A stretch of 64,000 bases of DNA from Escherichia coli (GTDB lineage Bacteria; Pseudomonadota; Gammaproteobacteria; Enterobacterales; Enterobacteriaceae): assembly GCF_003790525.1 (NCBI RefSeq), contig NZ_CP033635.1. One strand, 5' to 3'. Made by a program: the position numbers. Positions 36,001 through 39,000 of this stretch are shown in pieces. The stretch's first letter is position 1. Every line of letters begins with the position of its first letter.

Positions 36001-39000
36001 ACCATTTCAGCCATGTTTCGGTGATGCGGAAAGTGCTGCTAAGAATGACCAGTTGGATGCATTATCTTTATTTGGATCATTAAATAATATTAATGTATTG
36101 AATCTTGTAAATGTGGTTGAGAGCAAAAAATTGCAAATACAGGACATGAGAATTCGCTGTTCAGGCAGCGAAACTCGAGCCCTTTTTGTCTAGTCCACTG
36201 AGAATATAAACGCTCCTTTGATGCCCAAAAGTGGACATTTAATTATTTCTTTTTACCTTGAGAGAAAACTGTTTCGGTGTAATACCAAAATAGCTCTTAA
36301 AGTTTCGAATGAAATAAGATGTACTGGTATATCCAACATCATATGCAATACTATTAATATGTTTTTCAGTGGATGTAATCATCTTTGCTGCATGATGCAT
36401 TCTGATATCTAACACCAACGCATTAAAGTTATTGTTTTCTTTTTCAAGTTTTTTTCTAATCGAAACCTCAGACATATGCAAAATATCCCTAAGATCCATT
36501 AACTTCCAATTTCTTGATAAATCTGATTCGATAATTTTTTTGATTTTTTCTGTAAAAGTGATATCTGTTGAAACTGATAGTGAATAAACAAGAGGTTCAA
36601 TTTCATGGATTCTGGAAAGTAAATAGGCTATTTTATAAACTTGTCTGTGTTTCGGTAAGTTATTATTAATCAGACGTTTAAAAATTTCTTTATCTGTTTC
36701 CTCAAGGATATAAAAAAATATTTTTTTTCTTATTTGACTCACTAGTTGATGGCCTAAAAGAAGTGGCTCCATAACCTTACACACGCTATTTAATAGATAG
36801 CTATCAATAGTATAGATATCATAAGGTATACCGCTGCCAAGCACTTTTAATGTTGCATCAACGACAAGATTCTTTTCTATATAGCATAAAGAAAAAGGAG
36901 GGATGTTAATAACATCTCCATCTTTTGCTTTAATAACTAATTGTGCATTTCTAATAAAAATCATTGCGCTATTATAAAAACGAATTTTTTTAATGTAAGT
37001 GTATGATTTTTGTCTAGATTTCTATTGACAGAGATGTCAAGCTTTGTACAAGTAACTCGACTATTCATAAAGCCACCTCATGCTTTGTATATATATAATT
37101 CCATGAGTTATTAAGTTGTGTAAACTCGAAAATTCAACGTGAGTTAATTTTAAACAATCTAACAAATAATTAAAAAAACAATGAATTATATGCGTAATGG
37201 ATGTAATCACTATAAGAATAATAATATTATCGTAATGAAATTATGCGTAATTAACGAGTCAATCCTCAGGTTCAATTGTTTGGTTAAAAAAAATTCTTAA
37301 TAATGCGGGTAATTTCCTGGTTGTTTTCATCCCCAACTTAACTTTGATGCGACTGACTCGATAATAGATTTTTTCTTTTGAGAGATTAGTCATTTTTGAA
37401 ATCTCTCTTACACTCTTACCATGAAAATAGAAAAGGTATAAAATCTCCATTTCAATATTATTTAAGGAGTTTATTGCTTCACTTACCGATGCCTTCTTTT
37501 TATGAATGTAGATAGAGTTATGATGTATTCTAATATTATTAGTATCAATACACTTTATCGATTTTCCGGATAACAGAAGACTATATGCATAATAATTTTT
37601 AATATCACAAATAAGATAAATCTCATTTGTATCAAAATCAGCTCTGACTATGTCATCGATTTCTGTAAAATCTATGCATCGAAATGTTTTGTTAATATCA
37701 GATATCAACCGCATCCCGTAATTGAAAAAATTATTATCACTGGCAAGTATAAAGACAAGATTCATACATATCCTAAAATATTATCTTTTATATTATGCGA
37801 CAACTATAAGATAAAGATTTTTTAATATCTACATTAAAAATATAAAGATTTGATAAAAAACTATAACTAATTAACCAGTAAAATAACAATAATTACTTTT
37901 AGTAGAGTTGAGTACTTCAGGTGACGCTCATTATCGTATGCATTTATATAAATGATCTATAATCATTTTTCAGTATAAGGTCGTTTCATGTTGTTGATCT
38001 GTTGAGGAATATTCATTGTCACAATTAAGATATGTTCAAGGTAAATGGTATGTTTTCTTCAAAAAATCCCGACTTCAATAGCAGACAATCTGTTGCCATC
38101 AAAAGAACAATTGAACTTTTACTATAGGCATGTCGTGACAGATAAGATTATGTTGTTAAATACACTCTAAAATTTAAATTTTACTTATCAAAACATTCAA
38201 TTTCCATGAGGATAACTTTAAATATAAATAAATGGCGCAATAAATAAAACTATTTCGTCCTTAATTTGAAGACTATTCATAACAAGCATAAAAAATAAAA
38301 ACATCAAGAATAAAAATGAAAGTTAATTTAGCGTGTGTTTTCTAAATAAAATAAAGAGATATAAAAACCAGATAATGAGGTTTTATTGTTGACCATCTTA
38401 TCTTATGCGAGGTAATTTTTGCGACGTTCATGAACTTCTGGGCATGAACAAATATAGGACTAACCGAATTTGGGGCTAACAATTCTTTAAAGGCTTTAAG
38501 GAGCATTAAATGAAAAAATTGGTTTTAGGTTCAGCTATTCTTGCTGTACTTGGGATGACTTCTACTGCAATGGCTGCAAACAGTGGTACTGTTAATTTTA
38601 CAGGGGCTGTATCCAGCGCAACGTGTGATCTTAAAGTTACAAATGCTTCTGGAGCTGAGATACCTACAGTTGATTTAGGTACTGTATCAACGACGGGAAC
38701 ACCTGCTTCAGTTCAATTTAAGCTTGTTCCTTCAGATAATGCTTGCTTGGCAAAAAATGGAGCCCAGATTAGCTGGACATCAAATAATTTAACAACCCAA
38801 GGTTTTAGCAATGCAACTACGGGGGGAACAAATGCATATATGGCATTACTTACTTCTAATGCCCAAGAAACTGGTGCGAGCTCATATGTTAAATCCGGTC
38901 AAACTACTTTTAACTATCAAGTAACTAGTGGCGGTATTCGATCTTTTGATTACAGTGCTTCGTTAGTTAAACCTACTGGTACTGTGACTCCAGGCGCATT

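Follow-up and report, generated by a model that had tools for sequence, protein, structure and literature searches.

A one-base frameshift in an AraC-family regulator gene beside a fimbrial operon on the Escherichia coli chromosome

The subject of this study is an open reading frame (ORF) at positions 36239-36964, on the minus strand, of a 64,000-nucleotide (nt) stretch of the Escherichia coli chromosome (contig NZ_CP033635.1 of assembly GCF_003790525.1; hereafter, "the window"). A reading made from the sequence alone (the "original prediction") had taken this ORF for a complete Rns/AggR-like regulator of the AraC family and had placed an adjacent fimbrial operon under its control. The position, strand, ATG start and length of 241 amino acids (aa) were reproduced, as were the very low G+C content (29.1%, compared to 48.0% for the window) and the chromosomal location beside a fimbrial operon. 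The ORF is not a complete gene. It is the 3' 87% of a gene that, in other strains, has 276 codons; in the window, the reading frame is shifted after codon 28 by the contraction of a run of eight A's (A8) to seven (A7). The explanation that we favor, at a probability of roughly 0.6, is that the locus encodes an activator of the Rns/VirF/ToxT class, accompanied by a LuxR-type partner, and that the change from A8 to A7 has silenced it here, such that the activator is likely not made and the operon is silent. A working master activator, as originally envisaged, is thus unlikely in this strain, because the gene is frameshifted and the first β-strand of the protein, along with the counterpart of an N-terminal motif of Rns, is lost. 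The features of the frameshifted gene are as follows.

36239-36964, minus strand: 241-aa ORF with an ATG start; it covers codons 36-276 of an AraC-family gene that originally had 276 codons.
36239-37068, minus strand: the whole frameshifted gene, 830 nt here and 831 nt (276 aa) in A8 alleles.
36985-36991, minus strand: homopolymer tract and site of the frameshift, A7 here and A8 in intact alleles, encoding K27-K28.
36961-37068, minus strand: orphaned 5' fragment of 35 codons (MNSRVTCTKLDISVNRNLDKNHTLTLKKFVFIIAQ), read directly from the sequence.
37073-37079, minus strand: Shine-Dalgarno sequence GAGGTGG ahead of the ancestral ATG (37068-37066), kept in E. coli and E. marmotae.

The frameshift was located by comparison with E. 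coli SMS-3-5, to which 30,502 nt of the window could be aligned with one mismatch and one gap. The gap falls in the A tract (seven A's on the coding strand of the window, eight in SMS-3-5) and is the sole insertion or deletion (indel) in the 30.5 kb. With A8, the SMS-3-5 gene is 831 nt long and encodes a protein of 276 aa with the N-terminus MNSRVTCTKLDISVNRNLDKNHTLTLKKIRFYNSAMIF..., residues 36-276 of which are identical to the sequence of the 241-aa ORF. In the window, the 35-codon fragment is closed by a TGA (36963-36961), which shares bases with the start codon of the 241-aa ORF (ATGA); on reading the sequence ahead of this ATG (36964), no Shine-Dalgarno sequence was seen. In every A7 genome from RefSeq that was examined, the PGAP annotation is "frameshifted", with an 830-nt pseudogene at this place. 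The size of 241 aa, which had been taken as that of the regulator, is therefore an artefact of the frameshift; the true protein, at 276 aa, is near Rns (265 aa) in length. Annotation pipelines and sequence-only readers will nonetheless see a small, intact regulator in the 241-aa ORF of what is actually a frameshifted allele.

Several comparisons mark the 276-codon form as the ancestral one and, as far as sequence can tell, the functional one. Homologues between 45 and 100% identity are nearly all 274-279 aa long. The codon of Met36, with which the 241-aa ORF begins, is an Ile codon in plasmid homologues (65% identical), and hence there is no internal start at that place in them. A ribosome-binding site precedes the upstream ATG only, and the plasmid homologues carry GGGGGTGA at the Shine-Dalgarno position. 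Finally, the protein of E. marmotae is 86% identical, and a comparison of the two species gave a ratio of nonsynonymous to synonymous substitution rates (dN/dS) of 0.13 for the whole gene; codons 1-35 alone gave 0.09, and codons 36-276 gave 0.13.

The class of the protein was established by domain, sequence and structure comparisons. In the 241-aa ORF, Pfam detected HTH_18 (E = 1e-15, residues 160-233) and HTH_AraC (1.9e-10), both in the C-terminal half, and nothing beyond this AraC-type DNA-binding domain. The two C-terminal helix-turn-helix motifs that define the AraC/XylS family are present, and the seven model helices of this domain match the DNA-binding domains of GadX and MarA. When solved structures were ranked by sequence, Rns came first (E = 1e-27; residues 20-269 against Rns 8-259), followed by CsvR, ToxT (1e-15) and GadX. 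An AlphaFold model of the 276-aa form, calculated from 44 homologues, has a mean predicted local distance difference test score (pLDDT) of 85. It features a disordered tail (residues 1-20), an N-terminal domain of eight strands and one helix, two linker/dimerization helices and the seven-helix DNA-binding domain. Foldseek matched both domains to Rns and CsvR (template-modeling (TM) score of 0.85 by target length, 26% identity) and to ToxT (TM ca. 0.73, E ca. 1e-14); the matches to the sugar-binding domains of AraC and BgaR were weak (E ca. 1e-4, TM ca. 0.4). Among named plasmid genes, VirF is the closest (33.5% identity over residues 28-274, i.e. 89% of the length; E = 3e-40). HilD-annotated genes rank below VirF, as do CfaD and AggR, for which the alignment is limited to the DNA-binding domain (39-41% identity). 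The alignment proposed as a check of the original prediction thus came out in its favor: VirF is the closest named relative, and Rns is the best structure. No NCBIfam equivalog reached its cutoff, the best partial matches being HilD, YdeO, HilC and GadX.

The original prediction would have fallen if the closest homologues had been sugar-responsive regulators; since the nearest are Rns, CsvR, ToxT, GadX and VirF, this is not the case. A sugar-responsive AraC/XylS regulator was discarded as a candidate, given the weak sugar-binding-domain matches and the lack of any NCBIfam catabolic model near its cutoff. The ancestral 276-aa form has the hallmarks of the Rns/VirF/AggR/ToxT class (a length of ca. 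260-280 aa, a cupin-like N-terminal domain and relatives among virulence regulators). On the strength of sequence and model, then, the intact protein is assigned to the Rns/VirF/ToxT class, with a cupin-like N-terminal domain joined to an AraC double helix-turn-helix. It is a new member of a well-known class, and the current view of AraC-type virulence regulators is not overturned by it.

The regulator gene does not stand by itself. Upstream of it, on the same strand and intact in the window, is a gene that the original prediction had overlooked, and beyond that lies the region from which the fimbrial operon diverges.

37259-37765, minus strand: partner regulator of 168 aa, upstream of the AraC-family gene.
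37766-38509, no strand assigned: divergent intergenic region and fimbrial leader, 744 bp, 27% G+C.
37775-37785, plus strand: candidate AggR/Rns-type site (AAAATATTATC), with a -10-like TAAGAT 21 bp downstream (TAAAAT in other lineages).
37819-37829: second match in the scan with the AggR/Rns-type consensus.
38510-44201, plus strand: six-gene chaperone-usher fimbrial operon, comprising a PefA-like major subunit, a PefC/AfrB-family usher, a chaperone and three further subunit-like genes.

The partner is named "sigma factor-like helix-turn-helix" by PGAP. Pfam detected Sigma70_r4_2 (7.9e-9) and, weakly, GerE in it; a Response_reg domain was not detected by Pfam. Its AlphaFold model (pLDDT 78) features an alternating β-α, receiver-like domain followed by a helix-turn-helix, and its top Foldseek matches were RcsB, FixJ and EvgA (E ca. 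1e-5, with low TM scores of 0.3-0.5). The partner resembles RcsB and EvgA, members of the NarL/FixJ class, in joining a receiver-like domain to a LuxR/GerE-type helix-turn-helix, but it has only 168 aa, and there is no cognate kinase gene near it. An exhaustive profile search of 1.84 billion proteins returned 43 representatives of its family at E ≤ 1e-3, none of them named; the family size was taken from this search, as a word-index search with the partner protein gave close relatives alone.

Partner homologues of 160-170 aa were found at 1320-1802 of locus L003, 7019-7486 of L008, 3672-4175 of L018 and 5001-5513 of L016. In all loci that were read, the partner precedes an AraC-family gene of this class; the two are adjacent in most of them and 2.8 kb apart in L016. 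The genes beside the pair vary. On E. coli plasmid pR9-658-3 (L003), the pair is directly upstream of a SPATE-like gene of 1309 aa, on Klebsiella plasmids it is upstream of CS22/SEF14-type fimbriae, and on a metagenomic contig it comes after a 1142-aa ORF of unknown family. In L016 and L017 (2297-4616), a distant partner homologue lies beside two dispersin-family (Aap/CexE-like) genes, an AraC-family gene and an ABC-transporter gene. Among the best-known targets of AggR and Rns are dispersin and CexE, and the dispersin-gene neighborhood supports a virulence-type regulon. It was also observed that the layout of L016 and L017 resembles that of an AggR/Rns-type dispersin locus. As judged from these gene orders, the AraC-family gene and its small LuxR-type partner form a conserved two-gene module that looks obligate and of which no named member was found in the sources consulted.

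A precedent for this pairing may be the AF/R1 pilus of rabbit E. coli, which is reportedly activated by AfrR, an AraC-family protein, and the small AfrS, both of which are said to be needed; its usher, AfrB, reportedly lends its name to the PefC/AfrB family. The combination of an AraC-family gene, a small regulator and a PefC/AfrB-family usher is present at the locus studied here, although AF/R1 is plasmid-borne and the locus is chromosomal. This likeness is treated as a lead, and in the sources consulted no member of the family bears the AfrR or AfrS name. AfrR/AfrS is the only precedent known to us, and a study of the module may reveal how some of these activators are controlled.

The proposed sequence of events is modeled on Rns, CfaD, AggR and VirF. 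The intact protein would recognize A/T-rich DNA at two places, the 744-bp leader and its own promoter; the bound activator would overcome silencing by H-NS and recruit RNA polymerase; and the fimbriae, possibly along with an autotransporter encoded farther downstream, would be turned on. The A7 allele would separate the ribosome-binding site, β-strand 1 and the N-terminal motif from the remaining protein. In the window strain, the activator would accordingly go unmade and the operon would stay silent. In the AlphaFold model, β-strand 1 spans residues 22-31, and Met36 is inside β-strand 2. A product started at Met36 would therefore be without β-strand 1, half of β-strand 2 and the counterparts of Rns I12-M18 and His20. 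According to a review (PMC9820224), the N-terminal domain of Rns is essential, and a 61-residue N-terminal deletion abolishes its DNA binding and activation. Because β-strand 1 and the counterpart of the Rns motif are lost and the N-terminus is essential in Rns, the A7 allele is, by model and analogy, most likely inactive as an activator. Predictions of fimbrial expression from the genomes of such strains should depend on whether A7 or A8 is present.

The leader was searched for sites through which the intact protein might act. The sites bound by Rns-type regulators are asymmetric and A/T-rich, end in TATC and lie near the -35 region of target promoters (PMC6392122, PMC5192496), and the AggR/Rns-type consensus is WWWWWWWTATC, with a spacing of 21-23 bp to the -10 element (PMC6392122). 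The leader is 75% identical overall between E. coli and E. marmotae and has near-invariant blocks at both ends (37772-37870 and 38380-38509). Both of its consensus matches lie inside the first block, which is also the expected place of the partner gene's own promoter. The second block harbors a promoter-like element, TTGACC...TAATTT, ca. 85 nt before the fimbrial start codon. In the whole window, 19 matches were counted against 7.8 expected, clustered in AT-rich DNA; by composition-matched shuffles, a 2.4-kb AT-rich stretch holds seven matches against 2.95 expected (p about 0.04). The site search proposed with the original prediction thus turned up candidate sites in a conserved setting, at a count in the leader that is not above chance, as is described below.

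Three further observations were made on the leader. No Rfam family matched the leader or the regulator region at E values up to 1. An invertible element was considered and dropped; the inverted repeats are short and weak (19 nt, 79% complementarity), and there is no recombinase gene nearby. A 13-nt direct repeat, TTAT(A/C)TTATGCGA, occurs at 37788-37800 and 38398-38410 (plus strand), one copy per conserved block and each just upstream of a -10-like hexamer; it is probably due to chance, as the second copy is not conserved in E. marmotae.

A number of points weigh against the favored explanation. Homopolymers are called too short in some assemblies made from long reads only, and the number of complete genomes scored as A7 could be too high for that reason. 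The truncated ORF stays intact on hundreds of contigs, and it could be expressed, either by termination-reinitiation at the ATGA or from an internal promoter-like site. The argument for control of the fimbrial operon comes from conserved adjacency alone; such control is plausible. The two WWWWWWWTATC matches in the leader compare to 1.07 expected from composition-matched shuffles (p about 0.29), and there is no consensus site beside the promoter-like element nearest to the fimbrial start. Identity to Rns is no higher than 26% and to VirF no higher than 33.5%, and two features of Rns are not conserved in the sequence of the protein. The first is the Rns motif I12-M18, which is ca. 74% identical among its closest homologues, conserved and probably crucial (PMC9820224); this motif (IKINNIM) aligns with L24-R30 (LTLKKIR) at one identical position of seven, with the hydrophobic pattern alone kept. 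The second is the pair His20 and Arg75, which contact the carboxylate of decanoate, a fatty acid, in Rns (PMC8329261, PMC12379584); these residues are replaced by Y32 and T87, and position 87 is His in most members of the subfamily. Finally, VirF21, a natural N-terminally truncated form of VirF, keeps regulatory function (PMC5101355).

By the N-terminal motif and the fatty-acid contacts, the protein does not belong to the tight Rns/CfaD/CsvR/AggR/VirF clade of functionally interchangeable regulators. Members of that clade counteract H-NS, autoactivate and can be replaced by Rns or CfaD; of this, the locus displays the precondition, a low G+C content of the regulator genes (29%) and the leader (27%). 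The "Rns/AggR-like" label holds at the level of the class (Rns at 1e-27 and a TM score of 0.85; VirF at 33.5%) and fails at the level of that clade. Sequence comparison instead places the protein, outside the Rns/CfaD/CsvR/AggR clade, in a distinct and uncharacterized subfamily of ca. 276 aa. This subfamily has a conserved motif of its own (LxLKxIRFYN) and is distributed among Escherichia, Klebsiella, Citrobacter, Cronobacter and Salmonella; a specific name is absent from all of its clusters that were examined.

The distribution of A7 and A8 bears on what the frameshift means. The locus is carried by 73 of 5426 complete E. coli genomes and is also found in E. marmotae. The window's A7 sequence is matched identically in 43 of the 73; the remaining 30 differ at the tract, and the 17 of them that were listed, as well as all five that were read, have A8, i.e. 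one extra base. The exact protein sequences of 241 and 276 aa occur on 711 and at least 1000 public contigs, respectively. No single-nucleotide polymorphisms (SNPs) separate the window (A7) from SMS-3-5 (A8) in 8.2 kb. The same is true over 8.2 kb of 1517k (A7) and KOr019 (A8), which belong to a second haplotype group, 58-59 SNPs away, and both alleles are also present in E. marmotae. This pattern implies at least three independent changes at one tract. The A8 run is confined to the chromosomal lineage, as the plasmid homologues read AAAAAG for Lys-Lys. Since the tract has contracted independently in several lineages, it acts as a mutational hot spot through which the regulator is turned off time and again.

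Other homopolymers in the two regulator genes are affected as well.

36721-36728, minus strand: second A8 tract and second hot spot for indels, with a T7 run after it (36712-36718).

This second tract has gained a base in WP2-W18 and lost one in P19_598; the former is annotated as "frameshifted" by PGAP despite having A8 at the first tract. In the partner gene, runs of T8 (37286-37293) and T5 (about 37596) were noted, and the latter has lost a base in 1517k, truncating the partner. The simplest reading of all these indels is that runs of one base act as hot spots in a gene so rich in A and T, and that strains tolerate the loss of the regulator or gain from it.

The same data can be read as a phase-variation switch, with A7 as the OFF phase, reversible by slipped-strand mispairing, of a gene that is not dead. 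A polymorphic coding repeat that changes the reading frame among near-identical strains is one mark of a contingency locus, and such a repeat is present here. On haplotypes that are free of SNPs for 8.2-30 kb, A7 alternates with A8, both in two groups of E. coli and in E. marmotae, and both alleles are common, as the counts given above attest. Apart from the tract, the gene is intact in the window, and so are the partner and the operon; the A8 run, as noted, is specific to the chromosomal lineage. On the other hand, the further homopolymers with indels in single strains (the second A8 run and the T run of the partner) are better accommodated by untargeted decay, and eight A's are short for a high-frequency switch. 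We therefore regard a reversible switch as possible, but as something less than the probable explanation.

It is unlikely, in our estimation, that the 241-aa product is made and is functional, whether translation restarts at the ATGA or a leaderless mRNA is used, and whether the product acts as an activator or, in the manner of VirF21, as an antagonist or autorepressor. The stop codon of the 5' fragment does overlap the ATG, and the exact 241-aa sequence is preserved on those 711 contigs. A promoter-like sequence is also suitably placed.

36971-36999, minus strand: sigma-70-like promoter match, CTTACA-17 nt-TATAAT, with 10 of 12 matches, the joint best in the region.

The A tract is inside the spacer of this element. 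With A8 the spacer measures 18 nt, and only in the A7 allele does it have the optimal 17 nt. The -10 element ends 6 nt before the ATG at 36964, and the predicted transcription start is the A of that ATG. There is, moreover, a precedent in the closest named relative: VirF21 is made from a leaderless mRNA that originates at a gene-internal promoter, it represses virF, and alternative translation occurs at Met84 (PMC5101355). Arrayed against these points, promoter-like sites occur at chance density (15 found, 16.4 expected), and a scan for sigma-70 promoters and terminators disclosed no enrichment. In E. marmotae the -10 element has decayed to TATAAC, plasmid homologues do not have the Met codon, and the coincidence of the start site with the ATG was spotted after the fact. 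The truncation also cuts the predicted β-sheet, and Rns loses DNA binding upon N-terminal deletion (PMC9820224). A more elaborate version, which we consider improbable, would make the tract a two-level switch, with A8 yielding the activator and A7, by analogy with VirF21, an internal promoter, a leaderless mRNA and a 241-aa antagonist or autorepressor. If it were true, a one-base slippage would toggle the fimbrial and autotransporter island between activator and repressor states.

Quite improbable, too, is the idea that a little full-length activator is made from A7 even so, through -1 ribosomal frameshifting or transcriptional slippage. A programmed -1 site would combine a slippery heptamer (X_XXY_YYZ) in phase with a stimulatory element. 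Read in the upstream frame, the sequence TTA AAA AAA TTC contains an in-phase A_AAA_AAA heptamer, and a -1 shift on it would restore exactly the A8 sequence (...LKKIRFYN...). Heptamers of the A_AAA_AAG type drive frameshifting in dnaX and insertion sequences, and MxiE, an AraC-type activator of Shigella, is made by transcriptional slippage. In the window, there is no stimulatory structure downstream of the heptamer (-12.3 kcal/mol, z = -0.82 relative to shuffled sequences) and no Shine-Dalgarno-like stimulator upstream, so that only background slippage is plausible. Seven A's are also below the run length that is usual for efficient transcriptional slippage. Because A8 is ancestral and A7 is derived and recurrent, the heptamer was evidently not selected as a recoding site.

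Certain long-read assemblies often get the length of homopolymers wrong, but a sequencing or assembly error in a gene that is really intact was rejected on the frequency of A7 in independent assemblies: it is identical in 43 independent complete genomes, occurs on 711 contigs from NCBI and Logan assemblies, and is present in Logan contigs from E. marmotae sequencing runs.

Returning to the favored explanation, a silenced activator of the Rns/VirF/ToxT class, the locus protein may be compared to the characterized members of that class. VirF of Shigella controls virB and icsA, not fimbriae. It is alike in its two-domain size class, in being encoded by a low-G+C, horizontally acquired gene and in having full-length and truncated forms. 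The short forms differ in origin: VirF21 comes from alternative translation, whereas the short form at the locus comes from a DNA frameshift with the loss of 35 residues. We know of no LuxR-type partner gene adjacent to virF. Rns, CfaD, CsvR and AggR share with the locus protein their nature as activators tied to adhesins, dispersin/CexE-like proteins and AT-rich DNA. The gene rns is unlinked to its target, whereas the gene studied here is chromosomal, adjoins its presumed target and is paired with a second regulator. The presumed target is of the PefC/AfrB type, while those of Rns-type regulators belong to the α-clade (class 5). ToxT of Vibrio cholerae is a full-length structural match, with a cupin-like N-terminal domain that has a fatty-acid pocket; it differs in its low identity (ca. 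20%), its organism and its regulon.

The gene order around the regulators in this E. coli chromosome is lldP, a YadA-like autotransporter gene, yibL, mtlRDA, yibI, yibH, an AT-rich island, yibF and selAB. The island is ca. 12 kb long and is bounded by yibH and yibF. Its G+C content is 29% in the regulator genes, 27% in the leader and 27-39% in the DNA in which the fimbrial operon sits; yibH and mtlA have 53%. The fimbrial operon starts 1.5 kb from the 241-aa ORF and is on the opposite strand, and E. marmotae has the same arrangement of regulator and fimbria as E. coli. The usher scores 1129 bits against the PefC/AfrB equivalog model NF011760, the cutoff of which is 752. Of the plasmid ushers, that of Yersinia enterocolitica comes nearest (67.6% identity); those of K99 and F18 have 37-40% identity. 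The nearest plasmid version of the whole six-gene operon is on Yersinia enterocolitica plasmid NZ_CP124239.1 (L019), where it adjoins type VI secretion genes and abuts the origin of the record. A protease gene occupies the far end of the island.

44367-48182, plus strand: SPATE-like serine-protease autotransporter of the S6 family (1271 aa), which starts at a TTG codon and carries a GDSGS motif.

This autotransporter is a possible second target of the regulators and may be co-regulated with the fimbriae, since pR9-658-3 has a homologous regulator pair directly upstream of a different SPATE-like gene. The locus as a whole is an uncharacterized adhesin and protease island with its own regulator of the Rns/VirF class; a literature search turned up no usable published name for the locus or the regulator.

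A third haplotype of the locus was observed in strain 33F4 (L011), which differs from the window at ca. 340 SNPs in 8.2 kb (32900-41100), mostly in the leader and the fimbrial genes. The AraC-family gene of this strain has one synonymous change only, compared to that of SMS-3-5. Either the regulator is far better conserved than its presumed targets, or it was exchanged separately.

Outside of the island, one other adhesin-like gene was noted in the window.

23503-28152, minus strand: YadA-like trimeric autotransporter, 1549 aa, flanked by lldP and yibL.

Self-matches in this gene revealed internal tandem repeats every ca. 234 nt, with a mutual identity of 79-85%.

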